A stretch of DNA of 64,000 bases from a virus (taxonomy: Duplodnaviria; Caudoviricetes): positions 96,001-160,000 of the IMG/VR virus record IMGVR_UViG_3300028591_000087. The stretch is one strand, 5' to 3'. The notes beneath the pieces are model-generated. The model saw only the letters and a program-made list of their open reading frames with translations, made no database searches and was not told where the DNA came from. Each line of letters opens with the position of its first letter. Position 1 is the stretch's first letter. Of this stretch, positions 17,535 through 28,532 are shown in pieces. Made by a program: the position numbers and the translations under genes.

Positions 17535-19817
17535 ATGCCAAGTAATCCAGTCGTAAAATTAAAACGGGGTTCATATAGTACCTTATCAAGCTATCCTACT
17601 ATTGATGGCACTTTATATTTTGGAGTCGATGCAACTCCAACTTTATAGCAGTCTGAAAAAGGCGATAATGCGGCTTACAATTTATTCGTGTTGGACATGG
17701 ATGATGGTACTGGTAGTATAATTCGTAAAACCCTTGATGGTTATCGCGCATTATATGCAAAAGAAGCTGGAACAGCTGATTCCGCAGCCATTTGGTCTTC
17801 TTCTTCAGTATTTAAAATTCAAGATAATGACGGCACAAATACAGAAGCCAGTGGTGTTTCTGTTAATGGTAGCGCAGCCACTTATACATTAAAATTACCA
17901 GCAACTATTAAGGCTTCTATCACTGGTAATTTGACTGGTACTGCTGATAAAGCTAAACAGTTAGTCAATGGTAGTGGTACAGCATATAGTATTGGTTCTT
18001 CTACAAAACCTGTTTACTTCTCTAATGGTGTTCCTGTTGCAGTAGACAGTGTTGATGCAACCGCTACAGCAGCTGATAAGTGGTCTTCTCCAAAAGTTTT
18101 CCGCATTGAAGACAGTGCAACTACACCTCATAAAGGCGCAGATGTTAGCGTTGATGGTTCTAATGCAACTTATGTTTTAAAGTTACCTGCTACAATTCAG
18201 GCTTCATTAAGTGGTACTGCTACTAATGCTACTAAGTTAGTAAATAGTAGTAATGGGGCTGCTTATACTGTTGGTGATACAACACAACCTATTTACTTTA
18301 ATAATGGTGTTCCTACTGTTATGGGTACCACGCTTGGTTCTAGTGGTACTAATGGTGTATCTTGGACTGTTTATGGTACTTTAATGGGTACTGCTACAAA
18401 AGCAGAATCCTTAGCTTTAACTCAAAAAGTCGGCGACACTAATCGCCCAGTATTCTTTAGTGCTGAAGGTTTACCAGTTGCAGTTACTAGTTTAGATGCT
18501 TCTTTAATTAGTGGTACAATTAGTGCTGATAACTTACCAGCCAGCGTTAAAGAACGTATGATTGTTGTTGCTGATGAAGCAGCAATGAAGGCATTAAGTG
18601 ATGCTAATGCTCAGGAAGGTGACACAGTTCGTCTTTCTGGCACTGGTTCGGATAAATCTTTATATTATATTGTATCCAAGAGTGCAACTTCACTTCCTTC
18701 TGATACAATTACTGGTACAAACTTCAAATTCGTTCCATATAGCGCAGGTAGTGCGGCCCATGCAGATAATGCAACAACTGCAGATACATTATCTTCAGCT
18801 AAGTCCTTCTCCATTACTGGCGGTGTTGCTACATCTAATAGTATTAGTTTCAATGGTAGTGGTAATGTTGCATTAAGTGTAACCACTTTAGCTCTTGGTA
18901 GCTTTACTTCTATTACTGGTCAGTTAGGTTATGCAAATGGTGGTACTGGATTTAGTTCATACACCAAGGGCGATATGATCTATGCTAGTGCTAATAACAC
19001 TTTATCTAAGTTGGCTATTGGCACTACTGGTCAGATTATGACAGCAAACAATGGCATCCCTACTTGGACAGACACAAGTGATATTACTGATGTTGGTTCT
19101 GCTCAACAGTTATCAGTTACTAAGACAATTAACGGCACAGGCTTCAATGGTACTGGCAATATTGTTACTGCTACTTGGGGTACTGCGCGCACAATTACAA
19201 TTTCTGACAAGGATGGAACAAATACTGAATCTACTGCTAACATCAATGGTGGTTCAGACTTCACATTAAAATTACCTGCAACTATTAAAGCTACTTTAGC
19301 TGGTAAAGCTAATACTGCTGGTACTGCAGATAAAGTCGCTAATGCATTAACATTATCTTACACTAATGTTGGTGGTGCTTCTTCTACTGCTGTTACATTC
19401 GATGGTAGTCAAAATAGTGCAGCCTTTACAGTTAGCGCAGATAATTTGTTCTATAAGTTCACTGCAACTAAAACATTTAGCTCAGCCGTTACTGCCGGAA
19501 CCTGGACTGCGATTGGCACTCCAACTGGTATGTCAACAGGCACATATATTGTACAAATTGCTACAAATAATGCAACCTTTAATGTTGAATTGTTTAGTGG
19601 CGTAATGAGTTTCTCTTCTGAAACTTGCGAAAATGTTTCTACCGCAACAGATAGTCATGAAGTTATTCTTCATGCTTGCGGAAAGAATGCTAAGACTCAT
19701 AATATCTTCTTACGTACACGTAGAGTACAGAATAATAAGGTTGTTATTGAGTTCTCTGCTGACGTAGGATTTACTACAAGCGATCAGCTTACATTTACAT
19801 TCAGAAGAATGATTTAA
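17535..19817 (+). CDS. Tail fibre protein, 760 aa with TAG=Gln (TAG 17646)
   Basis: AAGGAGG RBS and ATG 17535 in frame with ORF 17688; N-terminus VKLKRGSY...IDGTLYFG; three LKLPATI repeats and PVYFSNGVP repeats. Confidence 0.8.
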
Positions 19818-19840: not shown

Positions 19841-22800
19841 TTGGCGGAAATTAGACTACCCTTGTCTGGGACAAGTACGCATAAAAGTGTAAATCCTTCT
19901 TCTTTAACGTTAAAAACAGATGCTAGTACTTCCGTTGTTTATGACGGAAGTACTGGTAAAACTGTTAATCTATATAGTTTGTCTGTGGCTTCAGCTGACA
20001 AATGGACTAGCACTTGTAATTTAACAATTGGTAATAAAACAATTGCAGTAGATGGCTCTACGGCACAGACTTGGTCTTTGGCTGCTATTGGTGCTTTACC
20101 GGCGGCTGGAGGAAAAGCTACAGGACGTATTTATAGAGAAGGTGCTTCTACCAACTGGAATAAAGGTAGATCAAATGCTTTAGTCGCAACCTCAACAATT
20201 AGTGGTTACTCTCCTTTTGCGTCTATTAAAACTAAAAATGGTTCTTGGGATATCGGTGCTTATGATAATGCTAATTATCAAGATGATTTAATTTTTTCAT
20301 ATGTAACTGATACATTATTTAATGGTTCTAGTTCTAATACAACTGCGCAAATTAGATTCCTTGAAAATGGTCATATTGTTGCTGATTTAGATGGTAATGC
20401 ATCAACAGCTTCAAGCGCAGCCAAGTGGGCAGCCACAAAATCTTTCACTATTGGTAATACTACAAGATCAGTAGATGGTTCTTCAGATGTTTCTTGGACG
20501 GTTGCTGAAATTGGTGCGGCCGCTTCAAGTCATACTCATGGAAACATTACTAATAGTGGCGCTAAATCTGGTACAACTGTTAAATCAACAGATGTTGTAA
20601 CTACTTCACATAAATTTTTACGTGAAGATGGCACATGGCAAGTTCCTATTTATTTAACTATTGGTAGTACCGCAAGTCAAGCTATGGCTGGTAATACTAA
20701 TGTTAATAATGTTGCTATTAGCGCAAATGTAACTACTAATGCTAATTATCCTGTTGTGTTTGCAGTAACTAATACCAGCACAACTTCTGCGAAGAATGAA
20801 GGATTGCAGAAAGCTAGTACGTTATACTTTAATCCTTCTACTGGTACTCTTACTGCTACTAAGTTCTCTGGTAATGTAACAGGTTCATCTGGATCTTGTA
20901 CTGGTAATGCAGCCACAGCGACTAAATTTGCTTCTAGTTAGTCTGTCGCTTTAACAGGTGTTGTAACTGGTTCTGCAAGTTCTCAAGCAGGTTGGTCTAT
21001 TACCACTACTATTGGATCTGGTAAAGTTACTAACGCTATGTTAGAAGGTTCTATTGCTAATGGCAAGTTGGCTAATTCAAGTATGACATTTGGTAGTCAA
21101 CAAATTAGTCTTGGTGGAGAACTTAGTTTACCTACATTACTTACTGACTTAGGTATTACGAGAGTTTTCCAATATTTAGGTTCGACAAAAAATGTACCAT
21201 CTGGATCGACAGTAAATAATATCAATTGTGTATCAGGTGATATGGTTCTTGTTACTGGTAATGCTACTGCTTCTAATGATGGTATTTATGTATATAATGG
21301 CTCCACTTGGGATAAGATTGACTCTTCCAATGGTGCCTATAAAGTTTTACAGACTGGTACAAGCGGAACAGGTTCCACGCTTAAAACTATCACTTCTTGG
21401 AGCCAAAATGAAAATGGTGAAATTACTATTACATATAGTGATATTCAAAGTGGTACAACCAGTCAAAAAGGTTTAGTTCAATTAGCTAGTTCTCATAGTG
21501 CATCTGATTCGACAATGGCTGCGACAGGTGCTACAGTTGCATCAGCTATATCTGCTGCCATTGGCGCATTAGATGGTTCTATTACTGGTTCTGCTGGTTC
21601 TGGTAAGACTTTAACTGCGTTTAGTGAAACAAATGGCGTTGTCAGTGCTACATTTGGTAATATTAGTATTACTAAATCGCAGATTTCTGACTTCCCATCT
21701 ACAATGACTCCTGCAAGTCATACTCATGGCAATATTTCAAATGCTGGTGCAATTACCGCAAATGCTGTTACTATTGCTAATAATGATTTTATAATTGTTG
21801 GAGATGCAAGCGATAGTAGTAAACTTACAAAAGGTCCTGTATTTGATGGTTCAACTGCTACTCAGTGTTTAACTAAAAAAGGTACTTGGGCTAATTTCAA
21901 TAATTATTCATTACCAACTACTACATATAATACACTGGGTGGCGTAAAACCTTGGTACAGTCATACATCTGCTAGCACTGGTCCTACTGCAGGATCTAAT
22001 GCTACTGCAGTCGCTGTTAATACTATTAGTTCTACTGCTGGTAGATATTATGCTGTTGAATCTGATAGCAATGGTAGATTATTTGTAAACGTTCCTTGGT
22101 CCGGCGGTGATACATCTGGATTGTTGCCTAAATCTGGTGGAACAATGACTGGTACATTAACTCTTCGTGGAGTTAAAGGTACCTCCACAATTGACTATGG
22201 TGATGTTCTTCCTGCTGATGGCGCAGAAGGTAGAATTTTCTTCCAGGTCAGTGATGGTGGATCTGATATGCCTCCAGGTGGTACAACAGGTCAAGCGCTC
22301 GTTAAAGCAAGTAATGCTGATGGCGATGTAACTTGGGGCGCTGCGGGTGGTATTTTAAGACCTACTACTACAACTAAATACTATGTTGGTGGATCTGCAT
22401 CTAAAACTGAAAATACAAATCCAATCTTGTTCGATACAGCGATCTATGTTGAAAATAGTGTTCTTCAAGGCGCAGCTTGGAACGACTATGCTGAATATCG
22501 TGCAACTAAAGAAGTAATTGAAGCCGGACGTTGTGTGGTTGAAGTCGGCGATGATACGCTCGAATTATCGACTTCCCGCAGACAACCAGGAGCTGAAATT
22601 GTTTCCGATACATTTGGTTTTGCTATTGGTCAAACTGAAAAATGTAACACTCCTATTGCAGTTACTGGACGTGTTCTTGCGTTCCCTTATGAAGATTTAA
22701 GTCGATTTACTCCTGGTCGACCTGTATGTTCTGGTCCGCAAGGTACAGTAAGTGTAATGAGTGATGAAGAAGCTCGAAACTATCCTTGGTGTATAATTGG

Positions 22801-22885
22801 TACTGTTTCTGGTATTCCGCAAGAAGAATATTGGGGTGCTAATAAAGTATCAACCAAAGGAAGAGTTTGGATTAGAGTGAAGTAA
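19841..22885 (+). CDS. Tail fibre/spike protein, 1014 aa with TAG=Gln (TAG 20939), C-terminal Peptidase_G2-like intramolecular chaperone/autocleavage domain
   Basis: ORFs 19841 and 21038 are in frame across one TAG; SHTHGNI and LPKSGGTMTG fibre motifs; AAWNDYAEY...PIAVTGRV C-terminal domain. Confidence 0.8.
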
Positions 22886-22886
22886 T

Positions 22887-23432
22887 ATGCCTAGTTATCA
22901 GTCAAGTCATACAGGAGCTTAGCATGATGATTATGTGACAAAGACTGAACTAGTTAATTTGATTTATCCAATTGGCGCTATTTATATAAGTACAAATAGC
23001 GCCGATCCTTCTTTATTATTTGGTGGCTCTTGGACACAAATTGAGGATACATTTTTACTTGGTGCTGGAAGCACATATACGGCTGGTGGGACTGGTGGAA
23101 GTGCGGATCATACACATACGACTAATGCTGGTACTACTGGTGCGCATACTTTAACAGAATCAGAATTGCCTAAAATTAGTGGTAGTTTAAGATGGCATGG
23201 CCAAGAACATGGTACACATATTTATCATATTGATGGACATTGTACTGGTAATCTTATTAATGGTATGTATCAAACTACAGGACAAACTTCAGGTGCATAT
23301 TCATATGGTGACACCGGATTTGCATTTGGTGGCGATGGTTCTCACACACATCCACAAACATCCGTTGGTACATCTTCATCATCAAATCTCCCGCCATATT
23401 TAGTAGTTTATATTTGGAAGAGGGTGGCATAA
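22887..23432 (+). CDS. Short fibre-tip/baseplate gp10-C-like protein with MPSY tag, 181 aa (TAG 22920)
   Basis: ATG 22887 directly after the upstream stop; MPSYQSSHTGA(Q)HDDY continues in frame into YPIGAIYIS...FGGSW...HTH...NLPPYLVVYIWKRVA. Confidence 0.8.
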
Positions 23433-23900
23433 TTGCCTTCATATAATTCACAACATACTGGTTTACAAATTGATAATGGTATTATCGCCGCCAATGCGGC
23501 CTTGTCTAAATCTGAGGCTTCAACTACTTATTTAACATAGGCTAAGGCGGCTTCTACTTATTTAACATAGGCAAATGCTTCTACTACCTATTTAACACAA
23601 ACAAACGCTGCCAGTACATATTTTCCTAAATCAAACGTATTTATCATAACAGATAAAACTGTTGCTATTGCGGACTGGGCATCTGATGCCACCTATACTG
23701 CTTATCCATATAAAGCTATTGTTTCAGATTCTCGTGTCACAGCGAGTACATATTGTGAAGTTGTATTTAATTTGACAGATGCAACTTCTGGTTATTTTGC
23801 CCCAATTTGTAATAGTGTTGCGGGCGGAATTGAGATATGGGCTAGTTCCATCCCTTTGACCGCAATCACTATTCCAACTATTAAGTGTACGATAGGATAA
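23433..23900 (+). CDS. MPSY-tag tail-associated protein, 155 aa (TAG 23538, 23568); absent from the ORF track
   Basis: TTG start immediately after the upstream TAA; (M)PSYNSQHTGLQIDN; ASTTYLT(Q) decapeptide repeats; ends TAA 23898-23900 overlapping the next RBS. Confidence 0.8.
23517..23621 (+). repeat. 30-bp coding tandem repeat (TYLT-Q-xxAxx), about 3.5 copies
   Basis: TATTTAACATAG, TATTTAACATAG and TATTTAACACAA at 30-bp spacing. Confidence 0.9.
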
Positions 23901-23913
23901 GGAGTGAATATCA

Positions 23914-24138
23914 ATGGCATCAGGCGGTGTAGCCGTTTGGCATACAACAGATTTTGATTATTATAAGGTTAAACTATATAAAAATGGTTCCTGGAAGGGA
24001 GCTACTCCTTGGGTATACACTGACGGAGAGTGGAGAAAAGTCGGTGGCGCAAATTGCCTGATGATTGAGTGGTATGACAAGAATGGCAATTTGATGGTTG
24101 ATTCTCAAGGAAGAACAATTTTGGTACGTGATAGATAA
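23914..24138 (+). CDS. Small tail-associated protein (74 aa)
   Basis: AAGGAG RBS; KLYKNGSWKGATPWVYTDGEWRKV beta-hairpin repeat; TAATG overlap with the next gene. Confidence 0.75.
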   Translation: MASGGVAVWHTTDFDYYKVKLYKNGSWKGATPWVYTDGEWRKVGGANCLMIEWYDKNGNLMVDSQGRTILVRDR

Positions 24139-24713
24139 TGCCAAGTTATAATTCTACCCATACTGGTATATAGATTGATAATGCCGTTGACACTTACTAG
24201 ACTCAATCTTAGGTTTAGGCTTTAATTAATAGCGCAATTGAAACAGCTGTCGCGCAAACCAAATTAGCTATGTATCCTATTGGGTCTATATATATGTCAT
24301 TGCAGAATACAAATCCTAGCGCATTCATTGGTGGTACTTGGCAATAGATTAAAGATACATTTATACTCGCAGCGGGAGATACTTATACTGCTGGTGATAT
24401 TAGCGGCAAAGCCACACATACACATACAACGATAGAAACTACTACAGGAAGCCATATATTAACAGTTAATGAAATGCCATCTCATAGACATGCTACTTCT
24501 AACTATAATGGTGGCGGTAATAGCGCTGGACATGCAACTACAAATGCATATCCACATGGTGATAGAAATTATTGGAACTATAATAATCCTGGTTATTCTA
24601 GTTATACAGGTGGAGGATAGGGGCATACACATACACAAGTATCTACAACTACTTCAAGCGAATCAAATATGCCTCCTTATCTTGTAGCATATGTTTGGAA
24701 AAGAATAGCATAA
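24138..24713 (+). CDS. Short fibre-tip/gp10-C-like protein with MPSY tag, 191 aa, six TAGs; absent from the ORF track
   Basis: MPSYNSTHTGI(Q)IDNAV...MYPIGSIYMS..NPSAFIGGTWQ(Q)IKDTF...HTH...NMPPYLVAYVWKRIA; paralogue of 22887..23432. Confidence 0.85.
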
Positions 24714-24726
24714 AGTTGGTGATGAT

Positions 24727-25059
24727 ATGGTCGGCACCACAAATACAAACACTAAAATTGATTTATCACCTTATGCTTTATCATCTTCAGTTCCTATTAT
24801 AAAACGTGGGTACGTTTAGTTTGGTCAGTCTGGTAGCACAAATATAGGTAGTACAACTTATTATGGTAGTGCAACAGTTTATTATGGATATACATTTCCA
24901 AGCGCACCGACAGTCATTTTAACAGGGAATGATTTATCAAGTGGTGTATTTGGTGCAGAAATTGATGGCGCAGTAACTAATACATATTTCCAATGTACAG
25001 GATATGGCGCAAGTAGTGGTACATATGGTGTATATTGGGTAGCGGTTTGGACGGGATAA
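24727..25059 (+). CDS. MVGTT-tag small protein, 110 aa, H-type-lectin/gp53-C-like (one TAG)
   Basis: GGTGA RBS; MVGTTN...KRGYV(Q)FG...YTFPSAPTVIL...YWVAVWTG; ends TAA. Confidence 0.7.
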
Positions 25060-25061
25060 GT

Positions 25062-25451
25062 ATGATTGGTACGACTAATATTGAAGCTCGTTTAGCTTAT
25101 GGATGGAAACGTTGGGGTTCAATTAGTTTATCTGGCGGTAATTCTTCTACTCAAAGTATTACAATTACAACTCATGGTCATCCTGTATATTTGAGTTTAA
25201 TGGGTAATAATAATCCTGATAATAATGCTTGGTGTAGAGGTTATATCTATAGAGGATCTACTGAGTTATGTTATGTAACTTGTCACGATCCAGGAGCATC
25301 TACAAATCGTCCATTTTGTTGTTAGTATTTAGATATTATAGAAGCTGGAACTTATACATATAATTTTAAAATATAGACACATTCTGGGACTATTAGTTAT
25401 TCTGAGAACGGTGCAAATGAAAGTCCTTCTTGTGTTTGTTTTGAGATTTGA
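25062..25451 (+). CDS. MIGTT-tag small beta-rich protein, 129 aa (two TAGs)
   Basis: ATG 2 nt after the upstream stop; readthrough gives LDIIEAGTYTYNFKI(Q); ends TGA. Confidence 0.7.
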
Positions 25452-25460
25452 GGGATGCAT

Positions 25461-26018
25461 ATGGTTGGAATAACGTCAGCAGTAGAAACATATCGTAATT
25501 TTAATATAGGTACTGAACCAATCTATATGCATAAAGATAATAATACTTATGTCCAAGTATATTACCATGATACTGGAGCTGGTTATTGGACAAAAAGTCT
25601 TTCAAGTATATTATATTCTACTGATTCGCGCAAATATTCATTATTTAGTAAATTAGATTAGTTAACTTATCAACCAAGCATATATCAATTTATTTTAGAG
25701 TATCCTGGATATAGTAGCACATCATATAATGAATGGTCTCAAACATCAAATCCTACAATGTATGACAATGCTGTTACTGGTTATACTCCAATTCATATTG
25801 ATTGGAATGGGTCAAGTTCTTCTGTTTATTTTAATGGTTTAAGTTTTATGCCAAGTCATTCATCTTGTTATTGTAAAAGTTATTGTGGCACATCAAGTAA
25901 CTGGTGGTTTGCTTTATTTTCTTATAGTTCTTATGAAGGCGGAGTACCTGGCCCAGAATGGGGCTCAAGCTCATATAAAATAGTTACTAAAATACGTTTA
26001 TGGTTGCGGGTGAAGTAA
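25461..26018 (+). CDS. MVGIT-tag protein, 185 aa, fibrinogen-C/lectin-like (TAG 25659)
   Basis: ORFs 25455 and 25758 join across one TAG: YQFILEYP...YNEWSQTSNP...WWFAL...IRLWLRVK. Confidence 0.7.
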
Positions 26019-26019
26019 T

Positions 26020-26727
26020 ATGATAGGAACAACAAGTAGTATTAATCATATTATTTAGCAAGATGTAAATAATTATGATCATTTGGTTATATGGCTGGAT
26101 GGCACCGATTTTATGAATCATGGAAATGATTAGAGTTATACAATTTCTAATGGTAATAATTTTAATCAATTGGTTATGTAGACTATTAAAAATAAATCTG
26201 TTTCTACATATTATAAAAGAAGTGCTGCTGCTCGTGCAAATAGTATAATAATTACTCCAACCGCATTACATAATTATAGTTCAATTACAATGATGGCTTG
26301 GTGCGCTCGTTGCGATAATACTGACCATAATAATTTATTTACTTGTGGAGATGCAAGTAGTGGTTTTTTTGAAGCACGTTTTAGATTGACTGGAACTAAT
26401 GCAGTTGGTTATTTATGGGCATCTGGTTCATCTTATGACTATCATAGTGTAGCTGTAGGACAACAAATAAATGAATGGGGTCATATGGCTTTTATTAGAA
26501 ATGGATCATCAATAAAATGTTATTATAATGGAATTGTTGTTGACCAAGTAACTGCTTCAACAACTAGAAATTCTATTTCGATTTTTCATTTATTAGGTGA
26601 TACCTGTTGGACATCTGACACTGGTGGAGCAAGTTATTGTACAGATTATAGATATTATGATATAGCATTAAGCGATGCGGATATTTTAGAAATATACAAT
26701 GCTGGTCCGCAATAGCATAGAAGTTAA
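26020..26727 (+). CDS. MIGTT-tag LamG/concanavalin-A-like lectin protein, 235 aa (four TAGs)
   Basis: MIGTTSS...LVIWLDG...ITMMAW...EWGHMAFIRNGSSIKCYYNG...DYRYYDIALSDADILEIY; TAA at 26725-26727. Confidence 0.75.
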
Positions 26728-26741
26728 ATTGTGGTGATATA

Positions 26742-27119
26742 ATGATTGGGACTACATCAATTACACCAAATATGTATCCTTTTTTCCAATTTTCTACTGA
26801 TGAATAGAAAACACCATTTAAATGGATTGATGGGAAAGATTTATATTGTAAAATATTAAAAATGACTACTGGATATTCAGAAGGAACTGCTTATACTGTT
26901 GCTACAAATGTAGATTAGCCTGTTTTAATTTAGTTTATTGTTAGTACCACTTCTGAAAGTCCATATGTATGGACAATTGGTAATTATTATTGCTCTGGAG
27001 GAGATAGAAATTATTCTTACTGTCGTTTAAATAATGGAACATTAACATTTATGCATCGTAGCGGTAGTAGCTATGCTTATGGCAGGACATGGGTAATCTG
27101 TTTTTATACTAAAAAATAA
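26742..27119 (+). CDS. MIGTT-tag fibre-tip-like protein, 125 aa (three TAGs); absent from the ORF track
   Basis: GGTGA RBS; MIGTTS...FSTDE(Q)KTPFKWIDGKDLYCK...FYTKK, matching the STxEQ..WIDGK.Y..YTK pattern of phage fibre C-termini. Confidence 0.75.
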
Positions 27120-27131
27120 GTAGGTGATAAA

Positions 27132-28532
27132 ATGAAAGTCACCGTTAAATTAAGTCTACAATCAAATATAGATCATTATGGTACATCAATTGTAGAACTT
27201 GATATAGAAGAATATGTTAAAGGCGTAGTGCCTGCGGAAATAGGTAATGCGCGTATAGAAGCCTGTAAAGCTCAGGCAGTGGCTTCCCGCACTTTTGCTT
27301 TTATAAAAGCTAGCAAGGGAAAGCAATTGACCGATCAAAGTAGTAAAGACCAAGCCTTTAAAGCAGTTCGTATTTCCTCTTCATATCCTAATGCAATGCA
27401 AGCTGTGGAAGAAACAGCGGGGCAAGTCTTATATTACAACGGTCAATTAATAACAACAAGTTCATATTCAAACGCGAATGGTGGACGCGTTAAATCCGCC
27501 AAAGAAGTCTGGGGTAGTGATCGTCCTTGGTTGATCTCTAAACCAGACCCATATAATGGAACTAAAACCGGTGGGCATGGCGTTGGTATGTCACAGACTG
27601 GCGCAAAAAACATGGCTGCGCAAGGTTTTTCATATAAAGATATTCTCGCTTTCTATTATGTAGGAACTGAGATACGCAATAACTATGGAGAGGAGAGAGT
27701 TATGACAAAAGCAGAAAAAGTTGCTAGTTGGGCTCGTTCAAAAGTAGGTTGCGGTTATGTTTATGGTGCTACTGGTCAAAAGGCTACTGAATCAAGCGTT
27801 CAAGCATTAATCAAATCATATGGTACATCAAATATAGATTATTCAATTGTGAAGAAATGGATTGACAAGGGTGTACAAGTATATGACTGTGCGGGGCTCG
27901 TCTCAGAAGCTATAAGTGCCGGCGGTCTACCAGGTATGTCCACTGGCGCCACGTCTCAGTGGAATAAAACTACTTGGCTCAAACGTGGTACTATTGATAC
28001 TTTACCTAAGGATAAAGTGTGCTGCCTTTATCGTTAGGTTTAGGCTAATCCGGTAAAAATGCAACATACCGGCATATATCTTGGTGATGGAACATTTATC
28101 GATTCAAGAGATAGCACCAGAGGCGTCATTGGTCCTAACAAGTTATCTTCGTATAAATGGACTCACTGGGGCATTCCGAAGGGGTTATATTCGGAAAGTG
28201 ATATTGATATTCCTGAGGTGATTAAAGTGGCTTATCAAGCTAAGGTAACAGCTTCTTCTGGTTCTACTGTTAATATGCGCAAGACTCCTTCTTCTAATGG
28301 TGCATTGATCTCTAAGATTGGTATAGGACAAATTATTGATGTGACAAGTGTTAGCGGTGATTGGTCCGCGATCACTTGGAATGGCAAGTCTGGTTATATG
28401 ATGTCTAAGTTCTTGCAAAAGGTTGAGGGTTCGGAAAATAATAAGGTATGGTATGTCCGCCTCGAGTGCGACAGCGAAGAGCAAGCAAAGGCAATCGCGC
28501 AAATCCTCGCGAAAGCGAAAGCAACCACTTGA
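27132..28532 (+). CDS. Endolysin, 466 aa with TAG=Gln: SpoIID/LytB domain, NlpC/P60-like peptidase, SH3b
   Basis: EEYVKGVVPAE..KAQAVASRT..GHGVGMSQTGA (SpoIID); GYVYGA..YDCAG..MQHTGIYLG (NlpC/P60); VNMRKTPS..WSAITWNGKSGYM (SH3b); TAG at 28035 and 28041. Confidence 0.85.

Follow-up and report, generated by a model that had tools for sequence, protein, structure and literature searches.

We analyzed a 64,000-nucleotide (nt) stretch of viral DNA (Duplodnaviria; Caudoviricetes; IMG/VR record IMGVR_UViG_3300028591_000087), hereafter the window. It corresponds to bases 96001-160000 of one phage contig, 193,102 bp in length. Five consecutive late genes in this window, named T1 to T5, encode small proteins that start with variants of one six-residue peptide (the tag) and then continue into different domains (the heads). 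These genes, which we also refer to as tagged cassettes, are as follows:

T1, 24727-25059, plus strand: 110 amino acids (aa), starting with MVGTTN (MIGTTN in the copy of contig L016); missing from contig L010.
T2, 25062-25451, plus strand: 129 aa, starting with MIGTTN, with a beta-rich head; missing from L016.
T3, 25461-26018, plus strand: 185 aa, starting with MVGITS; an alternative ATG is present at 25455.
T4, 26020-26727, plus strand: 235 aa, starting with MIGTTS, with a LamG-type lectin head.
T5, 26742-27119, plus strand: 125 aa, starting with MIGTTS (MTGTTS in contig L021), with an 8-residue spacer followed by a WIDGK beta-sandwich head.

The late genes on the plus strand of the window stay open only when TAG specifies an amino acid. 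The original prediction, made from the nucleotide sequence, had held that the five tagged genes stay hidden unless TAG encodes glutamine, and this was confirmed on re-reading: all five open reading frames are intact under genetic code 15 and break up under table 11. Code 15 is supported by in-frame TAG codons in late genes, suppressor tRNA (two of the 71 tRNA genes in the genome have the anticodon CTA) and alternation of TAG and CAA at tag position 4. The gaps between the five genes range from 1 to 14 nt, and most of the genes have a purine-rich ribosome-binding site (RBS; GGTGAT/GAGGG-type) 5-8 nt upstream. The second in-frame ATG of T3 (25455) lies two codons ahead of the tagged start (25461). 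Since the RBS directly abuts ATG 25455 (0 nt, vs 6 nt to ATG 25461) and the tag is present at 25461, the tagged codon appears to be the likelier start.

The N-terminal tag and its heads

The motif M-x-G-x-(T/V)-(N/S/T) was observed at all 24 cassette starts examined in eight loci. A six-frame search of the whole genome (193,102 bp) for a relaxed version of the pattern at start codons retrieved only T1-T5, and the strict motif would be expected at a random start with a probability of ~1e-5, based on the amino-acid frequencies of the genome itself. Position 1 is ATG in every case, and Gly3 is invariant, yet it is encoded by GGA, GGT, GGC and GGG. Position 5 is Thr in 22 starts and Val in the other two; Asn, Ser or Thr occupies position 6, where the Ser codons are TCA and AGT. 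The variable positions are 2 (I/V/L/Q/K/T) and 4 (T/I/Q/W). Gln4 is encoded by CAA in three cassettes and by TAG in two, and TAG is the second codon of one further start. Overall, only about 8-11 of the 18 nucleotides are shared among tags, and the codon listing agrees with the earlier statement that the five genes use different synonymous codons for the same peptide. Because synonymous and non-adjacent codon families encode the same residues, the tag is, judging from its codons, selected as a peptide and not as DNA. A cause in translation initiation at the mRNA level was rejected on the same grounds.

TAG codons within the tag itself (L011:7544-7549, L011:8312-8329 and L010:7829-7846) occur as ATG TAG GGA, read as MQG, and as ATG ATA GGA TAG, read as MIGQ. 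They provide an internal check on the assignment of TAG to Gln, and cassettes of this kind are predicted to be strictly dependent on suppressor tRNA.

The tag is also kept in homologues, as the original prediction required. The intact N-termini of T4 orthologues (47-58% identity) all read MIGITN, MIGTTN or MLGWTN, and a T3 homologue (73% identity) starts with MS-MIGITS. We infer that conservation of the odd positions is what would be expected if the tag were a beta-strand buried on one side only. Glu is absent from the tags, and sequence inspection detected no signal peptide or hydrophobic N-terminus in the tagged proteins. In several cassettes, the residues directly after the tag form a linker, such as AATGGGN in L004 and SGSAGKS in L010 and L021. 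In an AlphaFold2 model of T5 (31-sequence alignment), residues 1-21 adopt no secondary structure, and the first ten residues reach a predicted local distance difference test (pLDDT) score of 57; in this model, the tag lies outside the fold. The earlier suggestion that the peptide acts after removal of Met1 is not upheld, as methionine aminopeptidase is not expected to cut Met1 before Ile, Leu, Gln or Lys, all of which are found at position 2.

Behind the tag, the proteins share nothing recognizable. Mutual BLASTP comparisons of T1-T5 revealed no pairwise similarity past the tag, in line with what had been claimed. Common descent as the sole source of the five genes was rejected, given that their domain families differ. 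About 16 distinct heads were counted in the cassette pool of all strains described below, including LamG, discoidin-like, gp53-C-like and WIDGK beta-sandwich heads as well as several with no assigned family. The cargo of the tags thus consists of lectin-type heads (LamG, discoidin-like, gp53-C-like) or a fibre-tip-like beta-sandwich, and no enzymatic domain was detected in tagged heads.

T4 contains a Pfam Laminin_G_3 (LamG_3) domain (4.6e-11); its AlphaFold2 model (7-sequence alignment; pLDDT 51) was too poor to use. A scan of IMG/VR with the T4 alignment retrieved only a weak LamG relative, and no T4 relatives were found in GTDB genomes (same alignment) or in isolated phages (tblastn). The T5 domain starts at approximately residue 15 (FQFSTDEQKT..WIDGK) and recurs in 80 representative proteins, either as a stand-alone protein of ~120 aa, at the C-terminus of 500-600-aa, fibre-like proteins of other phages, or in tandem copies. 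It was modelled as a beta-sandwich (pLDDT 82.6), and the closest structures were the foot domains of the R2 and R1 pyocin fibres (VIA Z 6.4 and 5.9, respectively). The match to the R2 foot is middling (root-mean-square deviation 4.3 over 103 residues), and the likeness may be only a common arrangement. Foldseek searches of the PDB with the T5 model yielded nothing at E <= 1e-3, and neither T1 nor T5 had a meaningful sequence match in the PDB.

No significant family match was obtained for T1, T2 and T3 in Pfam and PHROGs. An alignment of T1 with a Gp53-like_C cassette from a sister strain is plausible without reaching significance, and T1 is possibly a gp53-C/H-lectin-like head by sequence; for T3 the only lead, Fibrinogen_C, came from a language model (ESM). 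Of the domain labels in the original prediction, LamG for T4 and a fibre tip for T5 were therefore retained, whereas those of T1 (gp53-C/H-lectin) and T3 (fibrinogen-C) fell short of significance or stayed at the level of a language-model lead. Heads in sister strains include Gp53-like_C (2.6e-8) and weak H_lectin and F5/8-C matches. In addition, the last ~25 residues of T3 (window 25941-26018) resemble the C-terminus of a 1014-aa fibre encoded upstream (22811-22885), with 50% identity (..RLWLRVK vs ..RVWIRVK), and the genes of these two proteins have an identical TAATATG junction to the gene that follows.

Cassette line-ups and exchange among strains

Sister contigs from other samples were collected by looking up an invariant 74-aa protein of the locus (s74, described below) and by adding cluster members. 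Their fibre and lysin flanks are 92-98% identical to the window and the middle is mosaic, with at least five distinct cassette line-ups between near-identical flanks. The line-up T1-T2-T3-T4-T5 was observed in the window, in the identical contig L013 and in L014 as far as it extends, and two further contigs match it, judged by gene sizes alone. Contig L016 has T1-T3-T4, with T2 gone. In L010, the array begins with T2-T3, a frameshifted gp53-C cassette, a MIGITS protein (166 aa, discoidin-like) and a MKGQTN protein (164 aa), and ends with a second MIGITS protein (170 aa, SGSAGKS linker) and a truncated MIGQTN gene. Contigs L011 and L012 start with MIGQTN (102 aa, weak H_lectin), MQGTTT (137 aa) and MQGITS (110 aa) and end with MIGQVN (108 aa, the Gp53-like_C match at 2.6e-8) and MIGTTS (233 aa), and L021 has the three L010-type cassettes followed by T5 with the start MTGTTS. 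Two tagged cassettes of L010 (L010:7829-8188 and L010:9704-9993) are frameshifted and represent pseudogenes or assembly errors. In all five strain variants, the array sits between the fibre genes and the lysin. Cassettes have been gained, lost and recombined among otherwise near-identical strains, which bears out the earlier expectation of a modular, swappable set once related phages were searched.

At three independent junctions, homology switches within the tag codons, so that the sequence matches one parent as far as the start codon and a second parent from inside the tag onward. These junctions join the upstream region of T2 to the body of T3 in L016, the upstream region of T1 to T2 in L010, and the end of T3 to the gp53-C cassette in L010. 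Because the crossover falls inside the tag codons, every exchange stays in frame and retains the tag, and the tag plus the RBS is the only sequence common to the cassettes at the crossover. Two Logan contigs, each from a different sample, start at the same distance (22 nt) ahead of a tag, which fits variable sequence immediately before it. The original prediction had described the tag as a conserved peptide and not a DNA recombination site; conservation as a peptide is borne out by the codons, whereas the second half needs amending, as the tag DNA does serve as the crossover point of cassettes. No DNA repeat family or inverted repeats were found at the cassette borders in the window, where all genes lie on one strand. 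In the absence of such repeats, a shufflon or invertase model was rejected.

Further relatives were found at greater distances. Contig L004, a 25-kb contig of a more distant phage that also reads TAG as Gln, encodes a T4 orthologue followed by a 386-aa protein that starts with MVGTTN and contains LamG plus F5/8-type-C (discoidin) domains. Three divergent radical-SAM-type genes (L004:1232-5197) adjoin these tagged LamG genes, and homologues of them are present in the genome under study at ~5-6 kb and 177-180 kb. Searches with the lysin retrieved three distant relatives (L007, L008 on a 116-kb contig, and L009) in which the baseplate-fibre-lysin synteny is kept. Their slot between fibre and lysin holds one or two unrelated untagged small genes (L007:1803-2450; L008:9373-10011; L009:9651-9998), and neither s74 nor the MPSY proteins described below were found in these three contigs. 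One of the small slot genes starts with MTGQTGS. Because these relatives have the variable slot without the tag, the slot between fibre and lysin has, on the sequences compared, long been a site of variation, and the tag system appears confined to one sub-lineage.

Neighbouring genes and genome setting

Upstream of the array lie baseplate and fibre genes, including those of two long fibre-like proteins that start at 17535 (760 aa) and 19841 (1014 aa). The following genes border the tagged cassettes:

Main tail fibre, 19841-22885, plus strand: 1014 aa, strain-constant, with a weak match to Pfam Phage_fiber_2.
MPSY1, 22887-23432, plus strand: 181 aa, head-only, with the N-terminal tag MPSYQSSHTGAQHDD and a Pfam Gp10_C match (7.8e-18); strain-variable.
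MPSY2, 23433-23900, plus strand: 155 aa, TTG start, with the MPSY tag, four 10-residue repeats and a beta-rich domain.
s74, 23914-24138, plus strand: 74 aa, located between two Gp10_C-head genes in every strain.
MPSY3, 24138-24713, plus strand: 191 aa, with the MPSY tag and a Gp10_C head (Pfam 3.8e-18).
Endolysin, 27132-28532, plus strand: SpoIID, NlpC/P60 and SH3 domains (Pfam); the constant right flank of the array.

The MPSY genes carry a second tag family, MPSY(N/Q/S)SxHTGxQ(I/H)D, which was found at 22887-24713 in the window and in contigs L010, L011, L016 and L021. Each strain has three to six such genes, variable in both number and type, and most of their products have a phage T4 Gp10_C-type head and the C-terminus (Y/V)(I/V)WKR(V/I/T)A. 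The slot of MPSY3 is occupied by 210-aa and 329-aa MPSY proteins in other strains. The protein encoded at 17535 starts with MPSNP; a scan of IMG/VR with it gave no match.

Alone among the MPSY proteins, MPSY2 is constant across all strains (21-23 synonymous vs 2-3 non-synonymous codon differences), and it contains a 30-nt tandem unit that encodes about four copies of a ten-residue, ASTTYLTQAxA-like repeat. It is a candidate adaptor. The s74 protein is identical in seven sequenced contigs (4-7 synonymous and no non-synonymous differences), and contig L020 has a 74% identical homologue, likewise between two Gp10_C genes. It probably belongs with the MPSY heads and may be a chaperone or adaptor of Gp10_C heads. 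As s74 and its homologue are always located between two Gp10_C genes, s74 was dropped as the leading candidate for a socket of the T1-T5 tag. In a between-strain comparison of codons, the numbers of synonymous and non-synonymous differences were 23 and 18 for T3, 89 and 29 for the fibre, 23 and 3 for MPSY2, and 5 and 0 for s74. On these counts, the heads evolve fast, and MPSY2 and s74 are constant.

The fibre at 19841 shows 95% nucleotide identity to its counterpart in L010, and its C-terminal ~145 aa are 42-54% identical to the fibres of L007-L009. The endolysin is followed by membrane-protein genes and is 96-98% identical among strains at the nucleotide level and 51-56% identical to the proteins of L007-L009. 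Its SpoIID, NlpC/P60 and SH3 domains suggest a Gram-positive host. Since promoter-like and terminator-like sites are not enriched across the tagged region, this region can be read as a single late operon.

Outside the window, one sequence is present in two diverged copies, one at either end of the contig (genome positions 1-20100 and 172000-193102). Each copy contains a tRNA array with one CTA-anticodon tRNA, and the final 100 nt of the contig recur at genome position 19511. The duplicated ends could be a diverged terminal duplication or a join between two strains in the assembly.

A putative docking strand and its parallels

We propose that the tag acts as a putative docking strand of minimal size at the N-terminus of interchangeable lectin-like heads, and we consider this reading somewhat likelier to be right than wrong. 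The late genes T1-T5 would represent, in this genome, a wider pool of at least 16 small head-only cassettes, of lectin type or fibre-tip type, whose hypervariable slot is bordered by constant tail-fibre genes on one side and lysis genes on the other. Residues 1, 3 and 5 of the tag would form one conserved face, with residues 2 and 4 free, and a flexible Gly/Ser linker would often tether the head to the tag. The tag would then load the heads of a strain onto a conserved socket in either the tail fibre or the baseplate apparatus, for which MPSY2, the fibres and the 17535 protein are candidates, and each strain would carry its own mix of glycan-binding heads. The position of the array in a late operon, right after the fibre genes and ahead of the lysin, fits virion proteins.

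Several observations weigh on the other side. No binding partner of the tag was identified, and Pfam and PHROGs searches of the fibres and baseplate proteins gave no match of the T4gp10 D2/D3 type, with only Gp10_C detected, in the MPSY proteins. With six residues, the tag is shorter than every docking peptide that we found in the literature. The tagged genes of L004 have radical-SAM genes and unrelated minus-strand genes as neighbours, and the 16 kb visible contain no tail gene; L007-L009 have no tag-like start despite the same synteny of fibre and lysin. Finally, crossovers at the tag would be expected whatever the reason that keeps it conserved.

The tag might instead be read by a non-structural recogniser, such as a chaperone for assembly, an enzyme that processes or modifies the peptide, or a particle-packing system like the capsid-targeting sequence of phage T4. 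The peptide is short, N-terminal and, in the T5 model, unstructured, which would suit a reader of this kind. A modifying enzyme is brought to mind by the radical-SAM cassettes of the phage and by the three radical-SAM-type genes that adjoin the tagged genes of L004, but radical-SAM maturases usually have leader peptides far longer than six residues. As to a chaperone, s74 is a perfectly conserved small protein in the locus, yet it lies between Gp10_C genes and never adjoins tagged genes. Targeting of the phage T4 type ends in a Glu-containing protease site, whereas the tags have no Glu, and lectin-type heads inside a capsid would make little sense. Taken together, we regard such a recogniser as unlikely. 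A role of the tag mainly as a recombination joint for in-frame exchange of cassettes, with a peptide that binds nothing, seems slightly less probable again. The three junctions that switch inside tag codons and the two Logan contigs that both break 22 nt upstream of a tag speak for it; however, such a joint would be selected as DNA, and here the amino acids are kept while the DNA, with its four Gly codons, two Ser families, CAA/TAG alternation and ~8-11 shared positions of 18, is not, and belongs to no repeat family.

Two other explanations keep the tagged proteins away from a socket altogether. If the cassettes encoded late soluble or cell-surface lectin-like effectors rather than virion parts, for example for binding of debris, block of superinfection or binding of host glycans, the tag could serve release or stability. 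The array lies between fibre genes and lysin in all five strain variants, domains of the T5 and gp53-C type are C-terminal tips of fibre proteins elsewhere, and the tagged proteins have no signal peptide or hydrophobic N-terminus, all of which argue against effectors of this kind; on the other side stand the tagged genes of L004, which are not beside tail genes, and the several heads with no detectable family. We judge this account improbable, below the recombination joint. The most doubtful possibility is that the tag is a self-association strand through which heads would assemble with each other, as homo- or hetero-oligomers, instead of docking on a different protein. Alternating conservation fits a beta-strand in that role too, and fibre-tip domains are usually trimeric, but unrelated folds would need the same acceptor, and LamG and discoidin domains are usually monomeric.

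The proposed docking arrangement may have counterparts elsewhere. In gut contigs of an unrelated lineage with the standard code (L005, L006, L017-L019), stand-alone WIDGK heads start with M[WF]Q[KEQ]xxQ and have a GGGS-type linker. The gene order in this lineage is a fibre C-terminus, a conserved 91-103-aa protein that ends with PEPEPTPEPEPTTDTTDEVVA (PEPEPTPEPEP tail), and one or two WIDGK heads. This comparison of sequences suggests that a short tag, a linker and a head make up a recurrent design with lineage-specific tags. A broader generalization, which we offer tentatively and think rather less likely than the docking role itself, is that a six-residue N-terminal beta-strand suffices to mount any small glycan-binding head, that a pool shared by the population is reshuffled from tag to tag, and that 'tag plus linker plus head' is a general, unnamed class of adhesins with lineage-specific tags in unrelated phages. 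If so, this would be a natural plug-and-play platform for host range. If the tag docks, no smaller address for loading receptor-binding modules on a phage would be known, and it would be without precedent for head-only lectin domains and for a code-15 phage whose host is probably Gram-positive. The comparison of strains shows such evolution in nature, with whole heads swapped in frame at the tag and many line-ups on one constant tail. In practice, a common set of first six residues in genes after the fibre genes, read with the right genetic code, can be used as a search rule for hidden adhesin genes in uncultured phages, and the tag offers a compact handle for the study of host range in laboratory pairs of phage and host.

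Among known systems, the distal fibre locus of T-even phages reportedly recombines at conserved glycine-rich motifs of the gp38 adhesins, as Tetart et al. are said to have described in 1998. Common features are a separate small adhesin, located on a fibre tip in T-even phages and putative here, and short conserved motifs as crossover points for swapping specificity. Gp38 differs in having an attachment domain of ~60 residues and motifs within one gene, whereas here whole genes swap at a 6-codon start tag. The capsid-targeting sequence of phage T4, an N-terminal address of ~10 residues that directs proteins to the prohead core and is cleaved at a Glu-containing site, is likewise common to unrelated proteins of one phage. 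The tags differ from it in having no Glu or protease site, in their lectin-like cargo and in their location in a tail-module locus. Unlike shufflons and invertible fibre segments (R64, Mu Gin, P1 Cin), the array has no conserved DNA crossover sites, and its genes are all on the same strand.

The closest parallel is provided by branched systems of receptor-binding proteins (RBPs). In the tailspikes of K1E, K1-5 and SP6, N-terminal peptides of 7 and 11 residues were proposed to dock secondary RBPs (PMC6872550). The conserved peptide is specific to each group, for example MALxxLV in the KP34 group, with others in the KP32 gp38, Menlow and PhiK64-1 groups, and it was modelled as binding a T4gp10-like branching domain (PMC6872550). 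In engineered phages KP32, K11 and KP34, loss of the peptide or of the branching domain abolished assembly of RBP2 (PMC13352976). As in these systems, a lineage-specific short N-terminal peptide is common here to otherwise unrelated, putative host-recognition proteins, whose clustered genes vary in number, interrupt a conserved synteny and are proposed to attach to a primary fibre or adaptor. The differences lie in a peptide of 6 residues; in a head-only, lectin-type cargo of 100-390 aa, compared with their large trimeric beta-helix depolymerases; in up to seven tagged genes per array, with no T4gp10 D2/D3 branching domain found; and in a code-15 phage with a probably Gram-positive host, in which docking is putative. 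Since short N-terminal peptides of secondary RBPs have been both described (PMC6872550) and validated (PMC13352976), the docking-peptide concept is already known, and the earlier statement that no description of this arrangement exists has to be withdrawn. What sets the present array apart is the 6-residue length, the head-only lectin cargo, the number of genes in the array and their shuffling at the population level, the MPSY tag and the use of code 15.

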